Counted from the first letter of the stretch, positions 1,901-24,215 are shown. The stretch is 40,000 nt of DNA from Ramlibacter tataouinensis (GCA_002427815.1 DIZF01000066.1:54542-94541); one strand, 5' to 3'. Notes: generated by a model from the letters alone, not told the origin. Translations and numbers: made by a program.

Positions 1901-2674
1901 GTGGTGGGTTCCATCGTGGATGCACGCGCAGCGGCAGGCAGCCCGCTTTACCTTCTCGAACGCAGCGACGTCGGCCTGGTTCAACTCGACCGTGACCTCA
2001 AGGTCGTAGCCATGAACAGCTTCGCGCGGCGCGCGCTGCCGGTCGAACACATGCAGCCCTTCGAGAAGATCGTGCTCTCGTTCCATCCGGAGCGCTCCCA
2101 GTCGAAGGTGAAGTTCCTGCTCGACCAGGCCGAGTGCCCCGTCAGCAATCCGCCGCTGATGACGATGATCATCAATATTCCCGAGCGCGTGCTGCTGATC
2201 AAGGTCAGCAAGATGTCGGACCTGCTCGGCGACACCTTCGGGTATACCCTAGTGTTCTACGACATCACCGAAGCCGTGAGCCGTGACGAGCCTGGCGTGC
2301 CGCGCGCCGACACCAAGCGTCAGCTGCTGAAGATTCCCACTGTGTCGGGCAATCGCATCGTGCTGGTCGATGCGACCGCGGTGCGTTACGTCCGGGCGGA
2401 AGGTCACTACACCTGGGTCCACACGGCGCAGGGGTCGAGTTTCTGCAACCTGACCATCAGCGACCTGGAGGGCCGCCTGGACACCGGCTCGTTCTTGCGC
2501 ATCCATCGCAGCTACGTGGCCAACCTCGATTTCGCCGAGCAGATCGTGCGCGACGACGGCAAGGTCATGCTCAAGCTGAGCGGCGGCGACGATCGCGGCC
2601 TGCCGGTCGCGCGCGCCAGCGTGCCGCGGCTGCTCGAGCGCCTGGGTATCGCGGAACCCGTCGGCGAGCGCTGA
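1901..2674 (+). CDS. PAS-like sensor fused to a LytTR DNA-binding domain (no receiver domain)
   Basis: The C-terminus (IVLVDATAVRYVRAEGHYTWVHTAQGSSFCNLTISDLEGRL..FLRIHRSYVANL) is a textbook LytTR domain. The N-terminal ~130 aa ends in ...LVFYDITE, like a PAS fold. GTG start at 1901; exact start uncertain. Confidence 0.75.
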   Translation: MVGSIVDARAAAGSPLYLLERSDVGLVQLDRDLKVVAMNSFARRALPVEHMQPFEKIVLSFHPERSQSKVKFLLDQAECPVSNPPLMTMIINIPERVLLIKVSKMSDLLGDTFGYTLVFYDITEAVSRDEPGVPRADTKRQLLKIPTVSGNRIVLVDATAVRYVRAEGHYTWVHTAQGSSFCNLTISDLEGRLDTGSFLRIHRSYVANLDFAEQIVRDDGKVMLKLSGGDDRGLPVARASVPRLLERLGIAEPVGER

Positions 2675-4260: not shown

Positions 4261-6675
<2,415 letters not shown>

Positions 6676-7407: not shown

Positions 7408-8306
<899 letters not shown>

Positions 8307-9539: not shown

Positions 9540-10235
9540 ATGGGATGCATCTTCAAAGCCAACGGCCTGTACAGCCGGATGACGGTGGGTGCCGTGCTGC
9601 TGGCGGCCGGCGCCGGCTCGCGTCTGGGCGGGCGACCGAAAGCGCTGCTCGAACTCGGTGGTGTGCCGCTGATCATGCGCCAGCTGATCGCGCTGTCAGG
9701 GGCCGGCGTCGACGAGGTCGTCGTGGTGCTCGGCCATCATGCGCAGGCGATCGAGGCCGCTGTGCGCCAGTTCCCGATCACGCTGGCGCACAACCCGTCG
9801 CCCGACGACGGCCAGGCCTCGTCGGTTCGCATCGGGCTGCAGGCACTGTCGCCCAGGCTCGACGCGGTGATCGTCGCGCTGGCCGATCAGCCGTTGATCA
9901 ACGCGCAGGACATCACCGCGCTGATAGCCGCGTTCAAGAAGCGCGGCGACGCCGCCATGGTGGTGCCGCGGGTGACGACCGCAAGCGGCGATCCCCAACC
10001 GGGCAATCCGGTGATCTTCGACGCAGCGCTGCGCGAGCAATGGCTGTCCGGTGCTGCCGATCTCGCATGCCGGAAGTGGCGGCAGGCCCATCCCGAGCGC
10101 GTGCTCTGGTTCGACACCGACAACCGGCGCTTTCGCGTCGACATCGACACGCTGGAGGATCTGGAGCGCTTTGCCGCGAGCACCGGTCACACGCTGACAT
10201 GGCCGTCGGCGCTCGCACGGGAAGAGGCCGTATGA
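9540..10235 (+). CDS. MobA-like NTP transferase (molybdenum cofactor cytidylyltransferase, MocA-like)
   Basis: VLLAAGAGSRLGG.PKALLELGG.PLI... is the nucleotidyltransferase motif. ATG 9540 is preceded by TAGGAGA; an alternative ATG lies at 9579. Confidence 0.75.
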   Translation: MGCIFKANGLYSRMTVGAVLLAAGAGSRLGGRPKALLELGGVPLIMRQLIALSGAGVDEVVVVLGHHAQAIEAAVRQFPITLAHNPSPDDGQASSVRIGLQALSPRLDAVIVALADQPLINAQDITALIAAFKKRGDAAMVVPRVTTASGDPQPGNPVIFDAALREQWLSGAADLACRKWRQAHPERVLWFDTDNRRFRVDIDTLEDLERFAASTGHTLTWPSALAREEAV

Positions 10236-15347: not shown

Positions 15348-15388
15348 TGGTCCGGCCGCGAAACTCCGCGTCGAACTCAGCGTCGAAC

Positions 15389-16258
15389 TCAGCGTCCTTC
15401 CTGAACCGGCGTTGCGGCCCCGCCTGCCTGCGCCGCCAGCGAAACCGCGACCGCCGCCGCCGGGTTCATGCTGTCGACCATCGAACTCGGGATCAGGATG
15501 GTCGTCCCCCGCTCCTTGGTGGTCTCGTAGATGATGTTCATCGCACGCAGCTGCAAGGCGCCCGGCTGCTCCGCATAGATCCGCGCCGCCTCCACGAACT
15601 TGCCCGCAATCTCCGCCTCGGCCGCGCCGAGAATGACGCGGGCCTGCTTCTCGCGTTCGGCCTGCGCCTGGCGCGACATGGCGTCCTGCAATGCCACGGG
15701 GATGGCCACGTCGCGGATCTCGACCGAACGCACGGTGATGCCCCACTCGCCGGTCTTGCTGCCGATATCCTCGCTCAGCTTCTGGTCGGCCGCACGGCGG
15801 TCGGACAGCAGCGCGCCCAGCATCGACGAGCCGATCATCTCGCGCAGGGAGGTCTGCGCCACGCGATCGATGGCCAGCCGGTAATCCGTGATCGCCAGCG
15901 CCGCCTTCTGCGCATCGTGCACATGCCAGAAGATGATGGCGTCCACGTTCACCGGCACCGTATCCCGCGTCAAGGCCTGCTCGGCATTGAAGGCGGTGGT
16001 CTGGATGCGCTCGTCGATCACGGCCACCACGTTGTCCACGATGGGAATGATCATGAACAGGCCGGGGCCTCTGACGCCCTGCAGCTTGCCGGCGCGCAGC
16101 ACCACGAACTTCTGCCAGGTGTTGGCCATCTTGAGCGACAGCGCGACGATCCCTGCCAGGACAAACAGGGCGATGCCCAAGCCCAACCGTCCAGTGGCCG
16201 CGGCCAGGGCGCCGGGCGCCGCGATGATGACGACAACAAAAAGGGTGATCGGGTTCAT
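15389..16258 (-). CDS. SPFH/Band-7 (stomatin-like) membrane protein
   Basis: The start at 16258 (MNPITLF...) follows AGGAG on the minus strand. It has an N-terminal TM helix, then FVVLRAGKLQGVRGPGLFMIIP..., and a coiled-coil QAQAEREKQARVI. Confidence 0.85.
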   Translation of the reverse strand: MNPITLFVVVIIAAPGALAAATGRLGLGIALFVLAGIVALSLKMANTWQKFVVLRAGKLQGVRGPGLFMIIPIVDNVVAVIDERIQTTAFNAEQALTRDTVPVNVDAIIFWHVHDAQKAALAITDYRLAIDRVAQTSLREMIGSSMLGALLSDRRAADQKLSEDIGSKTGEWGITVRSVEIRDVAIPVALQDAMSRQAQAEREKQARVILGAAEAEIAGKFVEAARIYAEQPGALQLRAMNIIYETTKERGTTILIPSSMVDSMNPAAAVAVSLAAQAGGAATPVQEGR

Positions 16259-16356
16259 CGTGGAACTCCTGCAGGGATGATTTTTGCAGTGTACGCCGCG
16301 TGTTGCTGCTGGCCAGGGGGTCGGCCAGAAGCAGATCTCAACCGCCAGCCATCGAG

Positions 16357-16965
16357 TCAAGAGGACTGAGGGAGTCCCAGGTTTCGGTCGTGCTCCCATA
16401 CAGCATGGGCGGCAGCCAACTGCGCCTTCAGATGCGCCGCCAGGCTGCGGGGCAACATGACTACGAGATCCTTGCCGCCCTTGCCGTCGCGCACTACCAG
16501 CGCAGCGCGCTCGAAATCGACATCCTTGACCCGCAGACACAAGCCCTCGGTCAGACGCATACCCGTGCCATACAGCAACTTGCCCAGCAGGGCCATCTCG
16601 CCATCCAGCGCGCCCAGCAGCGCGGCCACTTCGCTTTGAGTCAGAACGCAAGGGATCCGCCGGGCTCGTGTCGGCCGCTTCAAGTCTTCGAGCCATGGCA
16701 GGGCGACGCCCAGGACATGGCGGTACAGGGAAAGCAACGCGCTGAGCGCCTGGTTGTGGGTGGACACGGACACATTGCGCTCGGTGGCCAGCATCGTCAA
16801 AAAGGCGCGAACCTCCTGCGCACCCATTTCGCGCGGATGGCGCATCGTCCCGGATCGGCCGTGCCAGCGGATGAAGAAACGAATCCAATAGCGGTAAGCC
16901 TGCTCGGTTCGCAGGCTATAGTGCCGGTAGCGAAGCACCTCGCGAACCTGGTCCAGCAGGCGCAA
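16357..16965 (-). pseudogene. intI: Integron integrase fragment (N-terminal ~200 aa only; no ATG)
   Basis: LDQVREVLRYRHYSLRTEQAYRYWIRFFIRWHG...VSVSTHNQALSALLSLYRHVLG..LPWL...LLYGTGMRLTEGLCLRVKDVDF...VRDGKGGKD matches my recollection of IntI1 (recalled, not aligned). It stops before the IntI-specific insertion and the His-Arg-His-Tyr catalytic half. It starts at TTG directly after an in-frame TAA. Confidence 0.8.
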
Positions 16966-16996
16966 AGGCTGGGCGACATTACGTTAGAGGTTTTCC

Positions 16997-17545
16997 ATGA
17001 CCCAAGCATTGCTTCTCATCGACATTCAAAATGACTACTTCCCTGGCGGGGCTATGGAACTCGTTGGGAGTCCACTAGCTGGAGTTCAGGGCGGGAAGCT
17101 ACTCCACGCATTCAGACAGAAATCTCTCCCGATTATTCACATCCAACACATCTCTACACGCCAAGGCGTAACTTTCTTCTTGCCAAATACGGCGGGCGTA
17201 CAAATAAACGAGTGCGTAGCGCCAAAAGTGGGCGAAACAGTGTTTCAGAAGAATTTCCCAAACAGCTTTCGTGAAACACCGCTGCTTGAGCATCTACGCA
17301 AGCATGACGTTACTCAGCTCGTTATCGCAGGCATGATGACCCAAATGTGCATTGATACAACCACGCGCGCCGCTACTGACCTTGGCTTTCAGTGCCTTCT
17401 AGCTCATGATGCGTGTGCTACAAAATCCCTGTCATTTAATGGCGTTACTGTATCCGCCGAGAACGTGCAAACTGCATTTCTTGCCGCACTCAATGGCTTG
17501 TTTGCACGGGTGCTGTCTGTGGAAGAAATATGCACCAACCTCTAA
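16997..17545 (+). CDS. Isochorismatase-family cysteine hydrolase (cassette 1)
   Basis: ALLLIDIQNDYFPGG...LVIAGMMTQMCIDTTTRAA is the isochorismatase/YcaC-type pattern. The RBS (GAGG) and the stop (TAA) both lie inside attC-derived core sequences. Confidence 0.85.
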   Translation: MTQALLLIDIQNDYFPGGAMELVGSPLAGVQGGKLLHAFRQKSLPIIHIQHISTRQGVTFFLPNTAGVQINECVAPKVGETVFQKNFPNSFRETPLLEHLRKHDVTQLVIAGMMTQMCIDTTTRAATDLGFQCLLAHDACATKSLSFNGVTVSAENVQTAFLAALNGLFARVLSVEEICTNL

Positions 17546-17604
17546 CCCGGCAGTCAACACGGACGCTGCGCGATAAAGCCGCGCAGCGCCGGTTACTTCT
17601 ACGT
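17539..17604 (+). other. attC site 1 (left 66 bp; the last 5 bp, TATCC, continue at 19503-19507 after the intron)
   Basis: R'' CCTCTAAC (17539-46), 6-nt spacer, L'' GTCAAC (17553-58), imperfect palindrome, L' GTTAC (17592-96), spacer TTCTAC, R' GT|TATCC. The left arm carries extra C, A and A bases, as expected for attC extrahelical bases. Confidence 0.8.
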
Positions 17605-19502
17605 GTGTGCCGTGCATGGCACGAATCCCGCCGGGTGCAAGTCCCGGTACCAAGTATCAGCAGAGCCGGAGGTTAGCCAAAGGGCAAGTGCGTCGTCGCG
17701 AGGGGGGGTGCGGAGGAAGCTCAAGGCGAAATCGCGGGGCGATGAACAAAAACCGGATATGAGGCGTGATGCATTCGGGGCGAGCGGGCACGTGACCGCC
17801 AAGCCCTCCATCTGCAACAGCGGCGGCGACGCCGTGGTGGATGCATTTTGTAAATCCGGCGCCTATGCGAGGAAGGATTCGTGTCTTACCACGGGAGATC
17901 TGCCCGGTGTCACTGCGGCGAGAGAAGCGGCGACTGAAGGTTGGGAAACCGGCTTTGACCGCTGGGCAGAAGTCAGCAAAGGGCGTACGAGGCCGGGGGC
18001 TCCCGGCCAAAGGCCCGAACGTAGCGAGAGCTGGGCACTGACATGAAGGGCGGCGGGACTGCACCAGACCTGCGAGGCGGGCCACACGGCTCGCTCTCGG
18101 CCGAGGCAGCGATGCCCCGGAGTGAACCCGGGGCCAATGACGGTCAGACAGCCCAGTCGATGCATGGCGAGTTGCTCGCGCGCGTTCTCAAACGCGCCAA
18201 CCTGCAACGCGCCCTCAAGCAAGTGCGCCATAACAAAGGCGCGCCGGGCGTCGACGGCATGAGCGTCGATGAACTACCCCAGTATCTGAAGCACCATTGG
18301 CTGGAGCTTCGCGCGCAACTGGAGGCGGGCAGCTACTGCCCGCAGCCGGTACGCCGCGTGGAAATCGACAAGGACGATGGCCGCAAGCGGATGCTGGGAA
18401 TTCCCACCGTGCTGGACAGATTTCTCCAGCAGGCCATTGCGCAGATCGTGAGTGCGCAGTGGGAGCCACACTTCCACCACCACAGCTACGGCTTTCGGCC
18501 CAAGCGCTCGGCCCACCAGGCCGTGCGCGAACTGCAGGCCCAAGTCCAGGCTGGGCGCAACTGGGTGGTTGATCTTGATCTGGAATCTTTCTTCGATCGA
18601 GTCAACCACGACCGGCTTGTGCACCGGCTTGCAACGCATGTGCCCGACGCGGCACTGCTCAAGCTGATACGCCGCTTCCTGAAAGCCGGTGCGTGGGTGG
18701 ACGGGCACGTGCAAGCCAGCGCCCGGGGCGTTCCGCAAGGCGGTCCCCTATCACCGGTGCTGGCGAACGTCCTGCTCGACGAGATGGACTGGGAATTGCA
18801 CCGGCGTGGCCACCGCTTTGCGAGGTATGCCGACGACTGCAATATTGCAGTGGCCAGTGAGCGTGCCGGCAAGCGGGTGATGGCTAGCGTAACGCGCTGG
18901 ATCGAAGAGTCACTGCGGCTCACAGTGAATTCACGCAAAAGCGCTGTGGACAGGCCCTGGAACCGCAAGTTCCTGGGCTTCACGCTCACTCGCCGGGACA
19001 AGAGACTGAAGGTGGCCGAACAGGCCATCGACAAACTCAAGGACCGCGTGCGCGAGTTGAGCCGTCGTACACGAGGCCACCGCTTGGACGCGATCGTGGC
19101 AGAGCTGAGGACTACCCTGCTTGGTTGGAAAGCGTACTTCGGCATCGCCGAGGTGTTGAGCCCTCTGCGCGACGTGGACAAGTGGATACGACGACGGTTA
19201 CGATGCTATCAATGGAAGCAGTGGGGACCCAGGGGCTACCGGGAATTGCGCAAACGAGGGGTGAGCGTGCGAGAAGCATGGAACACCAGCAAGAGCGCGC
19301 ACGGTCCCTGGCGCCTAGCCCGAACCCCCGCGCTGACGCTGGCGTTGCCGGCGAAATACTTCAGCCGTTTGGGACTGCCGCAACTGGCCCCTTACCAGGC
19401 CTGACTGGCAGTATGTATTCAACGCAACGAACCGCCGTGTACGTGACCCGTACGCACGGTGGTGTGGGAGGGAGGGGCCGTGAGGCTTCTTCCTATCCCG
19501 AT
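17605..19502 (+). mobile_element. Group II intron, bacterial class C-like, ORF-containing, apparently intact
   Basis: The 5' end is GTGTGCC. Domain V is 19432-19462 (CGC triad, 2-nt AC bulge). Domain VI is 19466-19499 with a bulged A at 19495, 7 nt before the 3' end ...CCCGAT. The RT/maturase ORF sits in domain IV. Length 1898 bp. Confidence 0.85.
18160..19404 (+). CDS. Group II intron reverse transcriptase/maturase (no endonuclease domain)
   Basis: NKGAPGVDG, RMLGIPTVLDRFLQQA, SYGFRPKRSAHQA, the YADD catalytic box (FARYADDCNI) and the maturase X domain (LLGWKAYFG) are present. There is no HNH tail. The ORF is open from 18043; ATG 18160 best fits typical N-termini. Confidence 0.9.
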   Translation: MHGELLARVLKRANLQRALKQVRHNKGAPGVDGMSVDELPQYLKHHWLELRAQLEAGSYCPQPVRRVEIDKDDGRKRMLGIPTVLDRFLQQAIAQIVSAQWEPHFHHHSYGFRPKRSAHQAVRELQAQVQAGRNWVVDLDLESFFDRVNHDRLVHRLATHVPDAALLKLIRRFLKAGAWVDGHVQASARGVPQGGPLSPVLANVLLDEMDWELHRRGHRFARYADDCNIAVASERAGKRVMASVTRWIEESLRLTVNSRKSAVDRPWNRKFLGFTLTRRDKRLKVAEQAIDKLKDRVRELSRRTRGHRLDAIVAELRTTLLGWKAYFGIAEVLSPLRDVDKWIRRRLRCYQWKQWGPRGYRELRKRGVSVREAWNTSKSAHGPWRLARTPALTLALPAKYFSRLGLPQLAPYQA

Positions 19503-19531
19503 TATCCGTCGAGTGGTGTCGACGTAGCGCC

Positions 19532-19828
19532 TCAGCGATCTTTCCAATATCCTGGGCGCCTACGGTGATGCGCAATAGCAAAGACGGTCACATTCCGGTC
19601 GACGACCTCATACATCACCGTGTACGGGAAATGCTTGCAGTGGTAGTGCCTGGTGCCATCCCCGTCTGCGGGCCAGTCTCTCGCCGTTTCGCTCAAACCA
19701 TCGATGGCATCGAACAGCTCGACCCGAAACGCATCGGCGGCAATTGGGCTTCGGTCGAAATACCAGAGGAATGCCTCGCGCGCCTCTGCCTCCGCTTCGG
19801 GCAGTACTTCAACGTCGAAGGAACTCAC
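19532..19828 (-). CDS. RelE/ParE-family type II toxin (cassette 2)
   Basis: 98 aa, with ...EAREAFLWY...HYHCKHFPYTVMYEVVDRNVTVFAIAHHRRRPGYW, the ParE/RelE fold pattern. There is a 4-nt overlap with the upstream antitoxin. Confidence 0.8.
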   Translation of the reverse strand: MSSFDVEVLPEAEAEAREAFLWYFDRSPIAADAFRVELFDAIDGLSETARDWPADGDGTRHYHCKHFPYTVMYEVVDRNVTVFAIAHHRRRPGYWKDR

Positions 19829-20049
19829 AGGGAGCTAAGGCGCTGGCGAACTTCAGCCCAGGGAGCGGCTTGCACTCGCCCGGCACGCAACTCCGCGCGG
19901 CGTCGGTTTACCTCGGCGCGCCACAGCTCAGAGACCGTCGCCTCGTCGGCCGTTTCGAGGCTGTCGAGGAGAGCAACCGCCAAGGCTGAGCGCTCCTCGA
20001 CCGGAAGGCCGAGGACCTCGTCCAGAAGGTGGTCTACACGCGCATTCAT
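19825..20049 (-). CDS. Addiction-module antitoxin (PF09720-like component)
   Basis: MNARVDHLLDEVLGLPVEERSALAVALLDSLE...ELWRAEVNRRRAEL. The longer ORF to 20112 would start inside attC2, so the ATG at 20049 is preferred. Confidence 0.7.
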   Translation of the reverse strand: MNARVDHLLDEVLGLPVEERSALAVALLDSLETADEATVSELWRAEVNRRRAELRAGRVQAAPWAEVRQRLSSL

Positions 20050-20093
20050 GGGGTTCAGTCTAGCACCGCGGGTGTCGTGCGGGAAGGGCTCGA

Positions 20094-20183
20094 CGGATAA
20101 CATATCAGTCAACGCGGACGCCCAATGGCGTCCCGCCGCTGCGCGGCGTCCTCTTGGGCGCCGGTTACTTTCATTCGTTATCC
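20094..20183 (+). other. attC site 2
   Basis: R'' CGGATAAC (20094-20101), spacer ATATCA, L'' GTCAAC (20108-13), imperfect palindrome, L' GTTAC (20164-68), spacer TTTCATTC, R' GTTATCC (20177-83). Confidence 0.8.
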
Positions 20184-20205
20184 CTGGACCGGGGAGCCTC
20201 GCGAC

Positions 20206-20234
20206 TTGACATATAGTACGTTTAAACGTACGAT
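20206..20234 (+). promoter_or_regulatory. Cassette-internal promoter with palindromic operator for yefM-yoeB
   Basis: TTGACA (20206-11), 17-nt spacer, TACGAT (20229-34). The perfect 16-bp palindrome GTACGTTTAAACGTAC (20217-32) overlaps the spacer and the -10 element. Confidence 0.6.
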
Positions 20235-20258
20235 TGGCGCCATTTCGAGAGAATCATC

Positions 20259-20504
20259 ATGGCTATTCCCATTACAGCAAGTGCGGCGCGCGCCAGCCTG
20301 TACCGCTTGATCGACGAGGCCAGTCAGTCCCATCGTCCAGTGCTGATCGCAGGCAAGCGCGCTAGCGCCGTGCTCCTGTCGGCCGAGGATTGGGAGGCGA
20401 TCCAAGAGACGCTGTATCTTCTTTCTGTTCCGGGCATGCGCGAATCTATCAAGAAGGGCATGGCTGAGCCGTTGGACAAGAGCGCCAGAGAAGTCAAGTG
20501 GTGA
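20259..20504 (+). CDS. yefM: Phd/YefM-family antitoxin (cassette 3)
   Basis: MAIPITASAARASLYRLIDEA..SHRPVLIAGKR.SAVLLSAEDWEAIQETLYLLS.PG is the YefM pattern. Confidence 0.9.
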   Translation: MAIPITASAARASLYRLIDEASQSHRPVLIAGKRASAVLLSAEDWEAIQETLYLLSVPGMRESIKKGMAEPLDKSAREVKW

Positions 20505-20764
20505 AGTGGCAGGTCGTCTTCGCGAAACACGCACTCAAGGACGCCAAGAAGCTCAAAGCGGCGGGACTGAAGGAGAAGGCTCAGGAATTGCTGCAAGTGC
20601 TGGCCACTGATCCGTTCCAGAATCCACCGGCGTACGAAAAATTGGTTGGCGATCTTGAGGGCACGTATTCGCGGCGCATCAACATCCAGCATCGCCTGGT
20701 CTACGAAGTGTTCAAGAAAGAGCGCATCGTACGGGTCCTTCGTATGTGGACGCACTACGAATGA
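20498..20764 (+). CDS. yoeB: Txe/YoeB-family toxin
   Basis: The GTG start overlaps the yefM stop. ...LQVLATDPFQNPPAYEKLVGDLEGTYSRRINIQHRLVYEV...VRVLRMWTHYE is the YoeB signature. Confidence 0.9.
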   Translation: MVKWQVVFAKHALKDAKKLKAAGLKEKAQELLQVLATDPFQNPPAYEKLVGDLEGTYSRRINIQHRLVYEVFKKERIVRVLRMWTHYE

Positions 20765-20770
20765 ACTCGA

Positions 20771-20861
20771 GGGATAACATGCCCGTCAACGCGAACGCCC
20801 ACGGGCGTCCGCGCGTTGCGCGCGCATCTTTCCCTGGTCGCCGGTTACGTTTACGTTATAG
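20771..20861 (+). other. attC site 3
   Basis: R'' GGGATAAC (20771-78), spacer ATGCCC, L'' GTCAAC (20785-90), L' GTTAC (20844-48), spacer GTTTAC, R' GTTATAG (20855-61). Confidence 0.8.
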
Positions 20862-20875
20862 GGCGGGCCAAGCGC

Positions 20876-20903
20876 TTGACGTACATACATAGTGTATATA
20901 CAC
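20876..20903 (+). promoter_or_regulatory. Possible cassette-internal promoter/operator for brnT-brnA
   Basis: TTGACG at 20876-81. The perfect 12-bp palindrome GTGTATATACAC at 20892-20903 contains TATACA. The spacing is suboptimal (about 15 nt). Confidence 0.35.
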
Positions 20904-20910
20904 CAGGCGC

Positions 20911-21186
20911 ATGGAGTTCACGTGGTCGGAAGCGAAGCGGACCGCCAATCTCAAGGCACACGGGCTCGACTTCGTCGATGCGGCGTTTGTATTTGAGGGT
21001 GTGACGTTCACCTTCGAAGACGATCGGTTTTCCTGCGGTGAGCAGCGCTTCGTCACGCCTGGGCTGCTTGCTGGCATTCCCGTCTCAGTAGTTCATACGG
21101 AGAGTGAAAATGAAATCCGCATCATCTCGTTCCGCAAAGCCACAAACCGCGAAGCGCAAATCTACTGCAATGAAATCCAGGACTGA
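20911..21186 (+). CDS. brnT: BrnT-family (DUF497) toxin (cassette 4)
   Basis: MEFTWSEAKRTANLKAHGLDFVDAAFVFEG..FTFEDDRFSCGEQRF...IRIISFRKATNRE is the BrnT pattern. Confidence 0.85.
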   Translation: MEFTWSEAKRTANLKAHGLDFVDAAFVFEGVTFTFEDDRFSCGEQRFVTPGLLAGIPVSVVHTESENEIRIISFRKATNREAQIYCNEIQD

Positions 21187-21424
21187 CTGGGCTCGCCTCA
21201 AGGCAACTGGTAGCGCTGCCGCACCAACCGAAGAGCATCCGGAAGCCAGCGTTGCCCATATCGTGCGTGGAGTCGTTCGACGTGGGCTACAGCCTCTTCC
21301 GTCCAAAGCGTCCATCTCGCTGCGGGTAGACCAAGACGTTCTGGAGTGGTTCAAGGCGCAAGGCCCCGGCTATCAAACCCGCATCAACACCGTGCTACGG
21401 GCATTTCGTGACGCATCGGTATAA
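21170..21424 (+). CDS. brnA: BrnA-family antitoxin
   Basis: MKSRTDWARLKA...ISLRVDQDVLEWFKAQGPGYQTRINTVLRAF. It overlaps the brnT 3' end. The TAA stop lies in the R'' box of attC4. Confidence 0.8.
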   Translation: MKSRTDWARLKATGSAAAPTEEHPEASVAHIVRGVVRRGLQPLPSKASISLRVDQDVLEWFKAQGPGYQTRINTVLRAFRDASV

Positions 21425-21502
21425 CTGGTCGACACGGACACGAAGCAGAGGGCTGCCGCTTCGCGGCGTGTGCTGCGTGCCGGTCAGTTCCAACGGTCAG
21501 AG
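21418..21502 (+). other. attC site 4, degenerate
   Basis: R'' GGTATAAC (21418-25), but only a 2-nt spacer before GTCGACACGGAC. On the right side the boxes read GGTCAG (21482-87) and GGTCAGAG (21495-21502), so the GTT core has become GTC. Confidence 0.5.
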
Positions 21503-21505
21503 CGC

Positions 21506-22072
21506 ATGAACGTCATCACCGCCGGCAGTCTCACGCTGGAGCCACAGGTGGCGGCACATGCGGAGGAGATGTTGGTCGTCCTCGGCGACCCCGCGATCTA
21601 CCAGTACGAGGGCGAACCGCCTCCGTCGCTCGAGTGGTTGCGGGCTCGCTATGCAAGACTCGAATCCAGATTGTCCCCCGAGGGGCACGAGCAGTGGCTC
21701 AACTGGGTCATCCGCCTTCCGGCGTCTGGGCTCATTGGTTATGTCCAGGCCACAGTGCAACCGGACAATCGGGCCGCAATTGCCTACGTGCTGTCCAGCG
21801 CGTACTGGGGTCGCGGGCTTGCGCGCCAGGCCGTGCAGGCAATGGTCGCGGAGCTTGTCGAGCACTACCAGGTTCGCGAGCTGGCCGCGGTGCTCAAGCG
21901 CGAGAACCAGCGCTCGCTAGGGCTTCTTCAGCGGCTTGGATTCTCACTGGCTTCCCCCGAGCAGCATACCGAGCTTCTGGTTGCGCGCGACGAGGTGCTG
22001 ATGCAACGCACTTCGGCGCCGGCTGAGCGCGAACCTTGGGCGTCACCCAACCCTGCGAGGAGACTCACTTGA
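21506..22072 (+). CDS. GNAT-family N-acetyltransferase (cassette 5, gene 1)
   Basis: ...AIAYVLSSAYWGRGLARQAVQAMVAELVEHY is the acetyl-CoA binding motif Q/RxxGxG/A. ATG 21506 lies just outside attC4. Confidence 0.8.
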   Translation: MNVITAGSLTLEPQVAAHAEEMLVVLGDPAIYQYEGEPPPSLEWLRARYARLESRLSPEGHEQWLNWVIRLPASGLIGYVQATVQPDNRAAIAYVLSSAYWGRGLARQAVQAMVAELVEHYQVRELAAVLKRENQRSLGLLQRLGFSLASPEQHTELLVARDEVLMQRTSAPAEREPWASPNPARRLT

Positions 22073-22767
22073 AAGTCATCGGTCTGATCGGCGGCATGAG
22101 CTGGGAGTCCACAGTCCCGTATTACCGTCAAGTCAACGAGACGGTCAGGGAGCGCCTGGGTGGCCTCCACTCCGCAAAGATCGTTCTCTACAGCGTCGAC
22201 TTCCATGAAATTGAACGATTGCAGCACGCCGGAAACTGGGATGCCGCCGGCAAAGTACTGGGTGAGGCCGCCCGCGCACTCGAGTCCGCCGGCGCCGATT
22301 TCCTCGTGCTTTGCACGAACACCATGCACAAGGTTGCTCCAGCGATTGAATCGGCCGTGCGCATTCCGTTGTTCCACATTGCCGACCCTACAGCCGACGA
22401 GATCAAGCAAGCCGGCTTCTCGGCGGTCGGCTTGCTGGGTACCCGCTTCACCATGGAGCAGGAGTTCTATACGGATCGACTCCGTGAACGACACGGGCTT
22501 CGCGTGCTGACACCGAAGCAGGAAGACCGCGAAGTCGTGCATCGTGTCATCTACGAAGAGCTCTGCCTCGGAAAAGTCCTTCCTGAATCGCGCCTCGAGT
22601 ACCGGAGAATCATTTCCGGCCTGGTGGCCCAAGGGGCGGAGGCGGTCATTCTGGGTTGCACGGAGATCTCGCTTCTGGTCGGGCAGCAGGATTCGGACGT
22701 TCCGCTGTTCGACACAACGAGCATTCACGCTCGCAGGGCCGCCGAATGGGCGCTCTCTTCAGCATGA
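22069..22767 (+). CDS. Aspartate/glutamate racemase family protein (cassette 5, gene 2)
   Basis: (L/M)KVIGLIGGMSWESTVPYYRQVNE... and ...AVILGCTEISLLV carry the two catalytic Cys motifs (LCTNTMH and GCTE). TTG 22069 follows GAGGAG and overlaps the GNAT stop (TTGA). An in-frame GTG at 22036 is the alternative start. Confidence 0.8.
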   Translation: MKVIGLIGGMSWESTVPYYRQVNETVRERLGGLHSAKIVLYSVDFHEIERLQHAGNWDAAGKVLGEAARALESAGADFLVLCTNTMHKVAPAIESAVRIPLFHIADPTADEIKQAGFSAVGLLGTRFTMEQEFYTDRLRERHGLRVLTPKQEDREVVHRVIYEELCLGKVLPESRLEYRRIISGLVAQGAEAVILGCTEISLLVGQQDSDVPLFDTTSIHARRAAEWALSSA

Positions 22768-22814
22768 CGCGCTAAACTTTGCCGCCCTGTTTCCGACAGG
22801 CGGGCCTGGGCATC

Positions 22815-23012
22815 ATGTTTCACACGGTTGCCGCCGCCCTCGGCCTTGCCCTTGTCCTGATCAGGCAGGAGTACGCCTTTGTCCCGGAGGCGCTGTTCCG
22901 ACAGAGGCGTGAGGCCATCCTCCGCTCATTCCTCGACCGCTCGTACATCTACAGCACGGCCCGGTTCCAGTCCTCCCTGGAAGAGCGCGCCCGTGCCAAC
23001 CTGCGCCGGTGA
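22815..23012 (+). CDS. Small hypothetical protein (65 aa) with an N-terminal hydrophobic helix
   Basis: 55 of 65 codons end in G/C (hand count), typical of real genes here. No recognisable family and a weak RBS. Confidence 0.35.
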   Translation: MFHTVAAALGLALVLIRQEYAFVPEALFRQRREAILRSFLDRSYIYSTARFQSSLEERARANLRR

Positions 23013-24215
23013 TGGCTGGATCGCTGCGTCGGCAAGACTCATCAGCGCGCGCCGCGTTCCGCCATCGCCCACCGGGACGCCCAGCGTGACCAGCGCCGCT
23101 TCAACGCCGGCAATCGCGCCCAGGATCATGGCGGGATTGCAGTCGCCCAGGTGGCCGATGCGAAAGGCACGCCCCGTCAGCGGGCCCAGGCCGCCGGCCA
23201 GCGCGACCTGGAAGCGGTCGCGCGCCACTGCGCGAAGCGCCTCGACGTCGATGCCCTGGGCCACGGTGATGGTGGTGACCGAATGGGAGCGGGTGGCCGG
23301 GTCCTGCGCGAAGAACCCCAGCGCTCCGCCCTCGCGCCAACCCTCGACGGCGGCCTGCACGGCGCGTGCCAGTTGCGCGTGGCGGCGCCATACCGCGTCC
23401 AGCCCCTCGCTGAAGATCAGGCCCAGTGCCGCCTCCAGCCCCAGCAACAGGTTCTGCGGCGGCGTTCCACAAAACTTGCGGTAAGACTGCTCGTGCTTGC
23501 GACGCGCCCAGTCCCAATAGAAGCGCGGTGAAGGATTGCGCTGGGCGGCGGCCAACGCGGCCGCATTGACGGCCACGAACCCGAGCCCGGTCGGGCACAT
23601 CAGTCCCTTCTGCGACGCGCCCACGGCCACGTCCACGCCGGTGTCGTCCATCGCGAACGGCACGGCGGCGAGCGTCGAGACCACGTCGGCAACCAGGATC
23701 GCCGGGTGGCCGGCGGCGTCGATGGCACAGCGCACCGCGCGCAGGTCGTTGGTGACGCCCGAAGCGGTGTCGGTGTGGATCGCGAACACGGCCTTGATCG
23801 CATGCGCCTTGTCGTCACGCAGGCCTTGCTCGACGGCGGCGACGTCCATCGGCCAGCCTTCGCGCCAGGGCGTGCGGACCACGCGCCGGCCCAGCGCTTC
23901 GGTCTGCACGGCCCACGATTCGCTGAAATGCCCGGTGGCGGGTACCAGCACGGCTTCGCCCGGCGCCGCCAGGTTTTCGATGACGGCCTCCCAGACGCCG
24001 TGGCCGTTGGCGGCGTACATGAAGACGTCGGCTGCGCTGGTATGCAACAGGCGCTTCAGGCCCTGCTCGCAGGCAACGATGTTGGCATCCACCCGCGGGT
24101 CGCCCAGGTCCATGGGCTGCGCGCTCATCGCGTGCAGCACGGCTTCGGGAATCGGTGTGGGGCCGGGCGAGTGGAGGAAGCGGCGACCGGGGATGCGGGG
24201 GTGAGGGTGTGTCAT
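22926..24215 (-). CDS. Class V (AGXT/serine-pyruvate type) PLP aminotransferase
   Basis: It has the SQKGLMCPTGLGF PLP-lysine motif and ...AFRIGHLGD near the C-terminus. The last ~29 codons overlap the small plus-strand ORF and look non-native. Confidence 0.8.
   Translation of the reverse strand: MTHPHPRIPGRRFLHSPGPTPIPEAVLHAMSAQPMDLGDPRVDANIVACEQGLKRLLHTSAADVFMYAANGHGVWEAVIENLAAPGEAVLVPATGHFSESWAVQTEALGRRVVRTPWREGWPMDVAAVEQGLRDDKAHAIKAVFAIHTDTASGVTNDLRAVRCAIDAAGHPAILVADVVSTLAAVPFAMDDTGVDVAVGASQKGLMCPTGLGFVAVNAAALAAAQRNPSPRFYWDWARRKHEQSYRKFCGTPPQNLLLGLEAALGLIFSEGLDAVWRRHAQLARAVQAAVEGWREGGALGFFAQDPATRSHSVTTITVAQGIDVEALRAVARDRFQVALAGGLGPLTGRAFRIGHLGDCNPAMILGAIAGVEAALVTLGVPVGDGGTRRALMSLADAAIQPSPAQVGTGALFQGGLEPGRAVDVRAVEE

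Follow-up and report, generated by a model that had tools for sequence, protein, structure and literature searches.

A probable relic of an old chromosomal integron, with toxin-antitoxin cassettes and a group IIC intron in one attC site, in Ramlibacter tataouinensis

The locus and its integrase remnant

Positions 16313 to 23004 of a 40,000-nucleotide stretch of DNA assigned to Ramlibacter tataouinensis (GCA_002427815.1, DIZF01000066.1:54542-94541; hereafter the window, meaning the whole stretch, whose numbering is used throughout) lie between an SPFH gene on the left and the 3' end of an aminotransferase gene on the right, both on the minus strand. From left to right, they hold a fragment of an integron integrase gene (intI), a sliver of the attI recombination site, four cassettes that end in attC sites, one of which is split by a group IIC intron, and a fifth unit encoding a GNAT acetyltransferase and an Asp/Glu racemase (Table 1). 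Very probably, this segment is what remains of a chromosomal integron that occupied the locus before the lineages of this organism and of L177, a syntenic relative described below, separated. A preliminary description of the window had proposed a decayed chromosomal integron with attC-bounded cassettes. This proposal holds up against an attC model built independently of the window, against profile scores specific to IntI, and against the finding of related toxin-antitoxin cassettes between attC sites elsewhere.

The locus is not an assembly artefact. The same 15 kb are 100% identical in two other assemblies, a third assembly is 99.7% identical over 4.9 kb, and the gene order of the NCBI metagenome-assembled genome GCA_002427895.1 is identical to that of the window. 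The drop in G+C that had been noticed from a few lines of sequence extends over the array, whose units have values of 0.51 to 0.64 versus 0.69 in both flanks. The proximal cassettes lie between 0.51 and 0.58 (0.51 for cassette 1), and unit 5 is at 0.62.

The minus-strand integrase fragment belongs with integron integrases, as had been claimed. It scores 228 bits with TIGR02249 and 237 bits with NF011946, against 63-81 bits with the XerA, XerC and XerD profiles, and it is 70-87% identical to proteins of about 335 aa named integron integrase (from Thiomonas, Rhodoferax, Ramlibacter and Acidovorax, among others). All profile matches end at about position 190-200 of the profiles. In an alignment with nine full-length homologues, about 135 C-terminal residues are missing, and with them the HxxR box, the catalytic His, Arg, His and Tyr, and the patch specific to IntI, which reads KYPDLGxRWGWFWVFP in the homologues. 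As a check of IntI against a generic integrase, the profiles thus favour IntI, but the IntI-specific domain is itself deleted. The same alignment shows that the fragment begins about 10 residues late, the first 10 or so codons being gone, and that the nearly invariant Arg of the KGGKDR motif is replaced by Leu. Neither the IntI-specific domain nor the full RHRY set of a functional integron is present. With its catalytic half and IntI-specific patch gone, the gene is predicted to be unable to yield an active recombinase. In the 99.7% identical variant (metagenome contig L001), three of the four single-nucleotide polymorphisms fall inside the fragment (two synonymous, one Arg to Leu), a number too small to argue for relaxed selection on it.

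The 5' side of the gene is truncated as well, which the preliminary description had not recorded. Local alignments with three relatives that have full-length intI homologues (L089, L090 and L091) are split: window positions 16936-16972 match codons of intI and positions 16971-16988 match the attI core GGCCTACATTACGTTA, two pieces that lie about 166 bp apart in the relatives. This split points to a deletion of about 165 bp that fused intI codon 10 or so to the last 18 bp or so of attI. The remaining core reads GCGACATTACG/TTAGAGG (the slash marks the crossover), where the three relatives have GGCCTACATT(A/G)(C/A)GTTA, and the window keeps just GCGACATTACGTTAGAGG of the intI-attI region; in intact relatives the attI core lies about 145 bp from the intI start. 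What is left is therefore a piece of attI and not a functional platform, although the first cassette begins at its surviving G/TT. The deleted stretch includes the region expected to hold the cassette promoter Pc and the intI promoter, and a crude consensus scan found no promoter-like site upstream of cassette 1.

Just upstream of intI, between its start and attI, the same three relatives carry a LexA-box-like palindrome, CTGT-N8-ACAG (CTGTACGCGCATACAG, CTGTCATTAAATACAG, CTGTACATTTAAACAG; L089 ~180-200, L090 ~1225-1245, L091 ~9925-9945), which is consistent with SOS control of the integrase; this segment falls inside the stretch deleted in the window. The cassette array of L091, which has an intact intI, also contains an IS110-family transposase gene (L091:6455-7666) next to an attC match at 6445-6502.

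Table 1. Features of the locus, in window coordinates. ORF, open reading frame; R1, attC covariance model (see text); L177, syntenic relative; complementarity, bases after the crossover that pair with the cassette's own R''; a slash within a sequence marks the crossover.
Feature	Position	Strand	Evidence
SPFH/Band 7 protein, left native flank, outside the integron	15389-16258	-	Pfam PF01145, E 1e-35
Left junction, 44 bp, from the end of shared native DNA to the stop codon of the intI fragment	16313-16356		blastn match with L177 ends at 16312; IntI homology ends at ~residue 199 (~16368)
Truncated intI, 202-aa ORF, ~residues 11-199 of ~335-aa IntI	16357-16965	-	TIGR02249, NF011946; PF13495 and first half of PF00589; alignment with nine full-length homologues
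attI remnant, GGGCGACATTACG/TTAGAGG, crossover G/TT at 16983/16984	16971-16990	+	Local alignment to attI core of L089, L090, L091
Cassette 1: isochorismatase-family hydrolase (ORF 16997-17545)	16984-17603	+	PF00857, E 4e-33; complementarity 7/7; stop TAA inside R''
attC1, 72 nt: 5' part (R'', L'', L', spacer, GT of R') and TATCCG	17539-17604 and 19503-19508	+	R1 17540-17609, 42.6 bits, E 3e-8
Group IIC-type group II intron, 5' GTGTG...GAT 3', apparently complete	17605-19502	+	RF02001 111.5 bits (17692-17884); RF01998 38 bits (17935-18015); RF00029 42.8 bits, domains V-VI (19430-19502)
Intron reverse transcriptase/maturase ORF, 453 aa	18043-19404	+	TIGR04416 403 bits, full model length; YADD motif in translation
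Cassette 2 (plus T at 17604): ParE-family toxin 19532-19828 (-), putative antitoxin 19825-20112 (-)	19503-20177	+	PF05016; PF09720/TIGR02574; complementarity 7/7
attC2, 91 nt	20094-20184	+	R1 20095-20183, 32.0 bits, E 1e-5
Cassette 3: YefM/Phd antitoxin 20259-20504, YoeB/Txe toxin 20498-20764	20178-20855	+	TIGR01552, TIGR02116; complementarity 7/7
attC3, 92 nt, imperfect stem	20771-20862	+	R1 20772-20861, 26.8 bits, E 2e-4
Cassette 4: BrnT toxin 20911-21186, BrnA antitoxin 21104-21424	20856-21495	+	PF04365, PF14384; complementarity 5/7
attC4, 85 nt, decayed member of the 87-nt family	21418-21502	+	R1 21427-21494, 18.2 bits, E 0.03, L box only (model positions 13-58)
Unit 5: GNAT acetyltransferase 21506-22072, overlapping Asp/Glu racemase 22069-22767	21496-22772	+	PF13302, PF01177
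Terminal segment, 232 bp, origin unassigned; ORF 22779-23012 (+), 77 aa	22773-23004		No L177 match between 22772 and 23005
Class V aminotransferase, right native flank	22926-24215	-	Homologues ~397 aa; alignment stops near residue 395-401 of 429; L177 match resumes at 23005

attC sites, cassettes and the intron

The attC sites were searched with a surrogate covariance model, R1. An IntI-alignment scan of metagenome contigs gave 80 loci, and a hairpin finder applied upstream of intI returned 55 candidate sites; 30 distinct sites upstream of intI homologues, excluding those of the window, made up the model. In its training alignment the L box is 96% paired, four of five pairs show changes on both sides (compensatory), and an unpaired, nearly invariant C stands between pairs. 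Applied to 83 loci with intI homologues, R1 gave 145 matches, all of them upstream of intI and on the opposite strand, and AAC...GTT cores are present in 105 of the 116 distinct matches adjoining intI homologues. We then searched both strands of the whole 40-kb window with filters off. The top four matches are exactly attC1 to attC4, followed by the reverse strand of attC2 and by a match of 13.6 bits (E 0.37). The latter (2564-2647, minus strand) lies far from the integron and is most likely due to chance in G+C-rich DNA.

The locus thus has a cassette array of four sites in the same orientation, spaced by ORFs, three of them with AAC...GTT cores. They are the four sites first recognised from the sequence, to within a few bases, although not the single family that had been supposed: they are heterogeneous in sequence and fall into at least three length families (70, ~91 and 87 nt). 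attC1 is 90% identical to sites in two unrelated arrays (L098 and L103); in the L box, a compensatory change turns CAAC/GTTA into CCAC/GTGA. attC2 and attC3 share 73-74% identity with a 90-nt site of L131 (74% for attC2, at L131:689-778), and attC4 is 77-78% identical to sites of the 87-nt family in L151 and L114. In attC4, 4 nt of L'' are missing, and GTC replaces GTT in R' (G-GTCAGAG for GTTAGAG). When the bottom strands are folded, attC1 (with the intron removed) and attC2 give canonical structures (z -3.6 and -3.0 relative to shuffles), each with three single-base bulges on the R''/L'' arm (T, T and G in attC1; T, C and G in attC2). These bulges, together with the nearly invariant C column of the relatives' sites, bear out the extra base that had been noticed in L''.

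The cassette boundaries follow the expected rule, with the cut at G/TT and a 5' end that complements the cassette's own R''. The first seven bases after the crossover are complementary at all seven positions in cassettes 1 to 3 (TTAGAGG/CCTCTAA in cassette 1 and TTATCCG/CGGATAA in cassette 2) and at five of seven in cassette 4; mismatched pairings of starts and R'' give 3-6 of 7. The array of L095 obeys the same rule. This agrees with what the preliminary description had counted, as does the use of the R'' TAA as a stop codon by two ORFs, those of the isochorismatase (17543-17545) and BrnA (21422-21424).

The content that remains consists of four cassettes of the promoterless type, one for an isochorismatase-family hydrolase and three for type II toxin-antitoxin pairs, and of the older GNAT-racemase unit. 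The genes of cassette 2 are inverted relative to the array. Homologues of YefM/YoeB (77-81% aa identity) sit between attC matches in L174, and those of BrnT/BrnA (77-83%) do so in L156, L158 and L162. Among 83 other arrays, the toxin-antitoxin cassettes alone have homologues; none was found for the isochorismatase, the GNAT, the racemase or the 77-aa ORF of the terminal segment, and the latter matches no Pfam family. A consensus scan found a promoter-like TTGACA-17-TACGAT in cassette 3 (20206-20234), and the toxin-antitoxin cassettes are probably expressed from their own promoters. By analogy with work on chromosomal integrons (PMC13108822), they may penalise loss of the array and so hold it in place. 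No promoter was detected upstream of the isochorismatase cassette, which is probably silent.

The preliminary description had not registered what lies between units 1 and 2: an intron of 1898 bp that is not cassette content and that splits attC1 between the GT and the T of R', in the top strand and in the orientation of the cassettes. The intron has the domains of group IIC introns and GUGYG...AY ends, and it begins 8 nt after the attC1 stem, in line with insertion after a stem-loop. When it is excised in silico, ...TTCTACGT is brought next to TATCCG and R' again reads GTTATCCG. A general profile search reported no endonuclease domain in the reverse transcriptase ORF, and no separate test for one was made. 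In a plasmid collection, the closest reverse transcriptases (62-63% aa identity) are in the class 1 integrons of pR148 (NC_019380) and pPp47 (NZ_MG516912), on the same strand as the cassettes. The introns are 64-76% identical in nucleotides to that of the window, and their junctions have the same form: ...AAGCGT/GTGTG...CCCGAT/TAGAT in the aadA1 attC of pR148, ...AAACGT/GTGTG...CCCGAT/TAGAT in the aacA4 attC of pPp47, and ...ACGT/GTGTG...CCCGAT/TATCC in the window (slashes mark the insertion points). The intron of the window thus appears to be a diverged member of a sense-oriented group that targets R', and its choice of attC1 provides further, independent evidence that attC1 is an attC. It would be expected to splice out of sense transcripts. 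We found no second copy in the 40-kb window. Two contigs from independent short-read assemblies (L002 and L004) break at window positions 17590-17593, inside attC1 and just before the intron, which would fit a multi-copy intron in the genome.

A syntenic relative and the age of the locus

The relative L177 was recovered through a search with the GNAT. Its gene order matches that of the window: peptidase M1, rhodanese, SPFH, a variable interval, aminotransferase, aldehyde dehydrogenase and solute-binding protein, with 91-93% identity outside the variable interval. By blastn, homology extends up to 16312, covers the GNAT-racemase pair (21499-22009 and 22037-22772, 89-91% identical in nucleotides) and starts again at 23005. 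The counterpart of window positions 16313-21498 is 1013 bp long and contains a flavin reductase gene, a unit of about 195 bp and a decayed intI relic of 62-87 bp. The relic adjoins the SPFH gene in the same orientation as in the window (HYSLHTERVCLPRMRFFVRW versus HYSLRTEQAYRYWIRFFIRW). After the racemase, L177 has a degenerate attC-like site, 72% identical to real attC sites, and then an attC-bounded 4HBT thioesterase unit, in the place where the window has its terminal 232 bp. In all, four degenerate plus-strand sites, 68-81% identical to bona fide attC sites, separate its units. The shared GNAT unit starts at the crossover in both genomes (AACG-GTCAGAGCGC-ATG in the window, GACG-CTAGAGCG-ATG in L177), and the attC sequences upstream of it are unrelated.

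The shared flanks, the intI relic and the GNAT unit that starts at a crossover together indicate that the common ancestor already had an integron here. The description of the element as sedentary and chromosomal is thereby strengthened, since vertical inheritance, as expected for such integrons, is observed with one relative. On this comparison, the proximal cassettes would have turned over since then, or have been lost differentially, and intI would have decayed differently in the two lineages. The GNAT-racemase unit is likely to be an old cassette kept in both. A scan of genome contigs for the SPFH gene gave 80 loci, with up to 84% aa identity, none of which has another gene of this neighbourhood. 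We found neither an empty site with adjacent SPFH and aminotransferase genes nor an integron-free syntenic genome; the one close relative recovered has a different decayed array.

At the boundaries of the L177 units (5701-5707, 5903-5909, 7433-7439 and ~7833-7839), GTC and GAC repeatedly stand in place of GTT and AAC, and the R' of attC4 in the window (21496-21498) has GTC too. In L177 the changes are at mutually complementary positions of one cassette (TCAGGA...CCTGAC and TCAGAC...GGCTGAC). Among the 116 distinct attC matches adjoining intI homologues, GTC occurs once and GAC twice. Such boundaries may have arisen by AT-to-GC decay, or the cassettes may have an altered cleavage triplet.

Several observations weigh against an ancestral integron with five cassette units. 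attC4 fits R1 only partially, and the bottom-strand folds of attC3 (z -1.0) and attC4 are not significantly better than those of shuffles, so that the folding expected of all four sites was obtained for the first two. The attC-like sites of L177 are individually weak for R1 (E 0.013-0.46). A single syntenic relative was recovered, and the order of gains and losses is therefore not reconstructable. No attC follows the racemase in the window, where R1 gives at most 3.3 bits between 22700 and 23150 and no fold is significant. Finally, other GNAT homologues (73-74% aa identity) occur in an ordinary chromosomal context, LptE-holA-GNAT. Of the five gene units first proposed, four are thus attC-ended cassettes, and the fifth is an old unit, common to L177, without a recognisable attC in the window. 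An R''-like GCGCTAAAC at 22769-22777 was considered as a trace of attC and rejected, as the resemblance is visual only and neither a model match nor a fold is found there.

Hence, unit 5 is taken as a cassette on the strength of the comparison with L177. The GNAT and racemase genes could instead be a native operon adjoining the integron, with the array ending at attC4 (~21502). Their conservation as a two-gene unit, the missing attC behind them and the GNATs in non-integron contexts would fit, but we find this somewhat unlikely, because homology with L177 starts exactly at the R' crossover (AGAGCG-ATG) downstream of attC sequences that differ between the genomes, and because an attC-like site and an attC-bounded unit follow the racemase in L177. 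The G+C of the pair is also below that of the flanks, and sequence shared with the non-integron aminotransferase homologues resumes only at ~23005.

The aminotransferase ORF itself has 429 aa here, 405 aa in L177 and about 397 aa in homologues from other genomic contexts, a variation explained by the array abutting its 3' end. In the window (22926-23030) it reads about 30 codons beyond the end of the ~397-aa homologues, into integron-derived DNA, and the tail in L177 is different and shorter. The end of the array thus seems to have rewritten the C-terminus of a housekeeping-type aminotransferase. The closest homologues (~90% aa identity) are in unrelated neighbourhoods; they are paralogous loci, informative only for the non-homologous C-terminal tail. 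At the other flank, a 12-bp unit of a short tandem repeat (GCGTCGAACTCA, 15368-15379), between the converging rhodanese and SPFH genes, is missing from L001.

An ancestral integron that then decayed would have the following history. While the integrase worked, cassettes would have come in as circles at attI, cleaved at G/TT, which would account for first bases that complement each cassette's own R''. Decay would then have eroded intI at both ends, and a single deletion of about 165 bp would have taken its promoter region, most of attI and the expected position of the cassette promoter. attC4 and more distal sites would have lost their GTT/AAC cores through T-to-C and A-to-G changes, and the group IIC intron would have retrohomed into the top strand of attC1 at GT/T, splitting the site in the DNA. 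Today, having neither recombinase, attI nor cassette promoter region, the array would be incapable in cis of capture, excision or reshuffling. The dead integrase and the frozen array of the preliminary description hold to this extent; attC2 and attC3 look intact for a trans-acting integrase.

An IntI encoded elsewhere in the genome or on a mobile integron might therefore still reshuffle the cassettes with intact sites, the array serving as a satellite store similar to the clusters of attC sites lacking integron-integrases (CALIN). attC2 and attC3 retain canonical AAC/GTT cores (32 and 27 bits), the G+C of the proximal cassettes suggests a fairly recent arrival, and about half of the CALIN are in genomes with an IntI elsewhere (Cury et al. 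2016, PMC4889954). Against this, the intron interrupts attC1, and GTT is missing from attC4, so that the YefM/YoeB cassette, alone between two intact-looking sites, is the sole unit that a trans-acting IntI could plausibly excise. Re-insertion at the locus is not possible with attI gone, the order is the same in three independent assemblies, and there is no second intI in the 40-kb window. Ongoing reshuffling is, in our view, unlikely.

It is highly improbable that the element is not ancestral and came as a foreign piece of integron, truncated at both ends and inserted by illegitimate recombination in place of native genes. The truncations at the 3' end of intI on the left and at the R' of attC4 within the array, as well as the flavin reductase gene at the corresponding position of L177, would be expected from such an event; L177, however, carries at this very junction an intI relic of its own, oriented as in the window, its units are all set apart by degenerate attC-like sites, its GNAT-racemase unit starts at the crossover as in the window, and the C-terminus of its aminotransferase is likewise altered. 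That the sites are generic intergenic repeats mimicking attC (REP-like elements or terminators) can be dismissed with near certainty, for although they are G+C-rich imperfect palindromes after ORFs, one with a terminator-like stem, they are absent from the rest of the 40-kb window, lie solely on the right-hand side of the intI fragment, are 73-90% identical to sites found exclusively upstream of intI homologues, follow the R'/R'' rule of circular permutation, and include one that was the target of a group IIC intron, of which the two nearest relatives recovered sit in attC sites.

Decay and comparison with known integrons and introns

The locus reveals no new mechanism; its value is that of a well-resolved snapshot of chromosomal integron decay. 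Of the four proximal units, three encode toxin-antitoxin pairs, and the GNAT-racemase unit has been kept in two lineages as if domesticated. The less ordinary points are the sense-oriented intron in an attC and the paired decay in two lineages, neither of which is unprecedented.

IntegronFinder would probably call the element a CALIN, defined by at least two attC sites and no integron-integrase within 4 kb (PMC4889954). The likeness to CALIN and to chromosomal integrons with inactivated intI described there is clear: a small attC-bounded chromosomal array, with mostly unknown or non-resistance cassettes and no functional integrase. In that work, the count of attC sites is below six in 83% of the CALIN, complete integrons that lost their integrase are proposed as the source, and an intI pseudogene was recognisable in 15 of 279, by a search with the intI_Cterm profile (PMC4889954). 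Unlike most of them, the element of the window keeps an intI pseudogene and a sliver of attI, and it has a syntenic relative in more advanced, independent decay. Its pseudogene lacks the region covered by intI_Cterm, and such an N-terminal stub would escape screens that use a C-terminal IntI profile. Hence, some "orphan" CALIN may be relics in situ.

The element also resembles sedentary chromosomal integrons with toxin-antitoxin cassettes, such as the superintegrons of Vibrio (Richard et al. 2024, PMC13108822), in its fixed locus in related lineages, its variable cassettes, and its type II toxin-antitoxin pairs, which have promoter-like sites of their own and include an inverted one. It differs from them in having four to five units instead of tens to hundreds, several attC length families instead of homogeneous sites, and a dead integrase. 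Published operational criteria for sedentary integrons ask for presence in 100% of the pan-genome or for more than 19 attC sites; the four sites here, of 72, 91, 92 and 85 nt and from at least three families, do not make a large homogeneous array.

As for the intron, published group IIC-attC introns target R'' (TTGT/T) on the bottom strand and are oriented against the cassettes (PMC3001079, PMC7923331). The intron of the window shares with these, of which S.ma.I2 is an example, the insertion after the attC stem-loop at the core triplet of an R box, and no endonuclease match was reported for it. In contrast to the S.ma.I2 type, it lies in the top strand, at R' (ACGT/T), in sense orientation relative to the array. 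One exception of this kind in an attC, a group IIC intron of Enterobacter cloacae, is given in PMC7923331 (citing Rodriguez-Martinez et al. 2012). Like that intron, as far as it is described there, and like those of pR148 and pPp47, the intron of the window is in cassette orientation, and it may be of the same lineage as the E. cloacae one. We tentatively suggest, while regarding it as doubtful, that these introns form a separate IIC lineage that targets the top-strand attC hairpin and the GT/T of R', with Burkholderiales-like environmental chromosomal integrons as the reservoir and source of the clinical class 1 copies. If so, the intron would be a tolerated passenger, because it could in principle splice out of cassette transcripts: the attC would be inactivated at the DNA level and read-through would not be blocked. 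A sense-oriented intron would then also fit published ideas of intron-assisted cassette formation. Unlike the introns of pR148 and pPp47, whose hosts are clinical mobile class 1 integrons, this one resides in the relic of an environmental chromosomal integron, and it thereby adds an environmental chromosomal case to the rarely reported top-strand, sense-oriented attC introns, the other examples found here being in clinical class 1 integrons.

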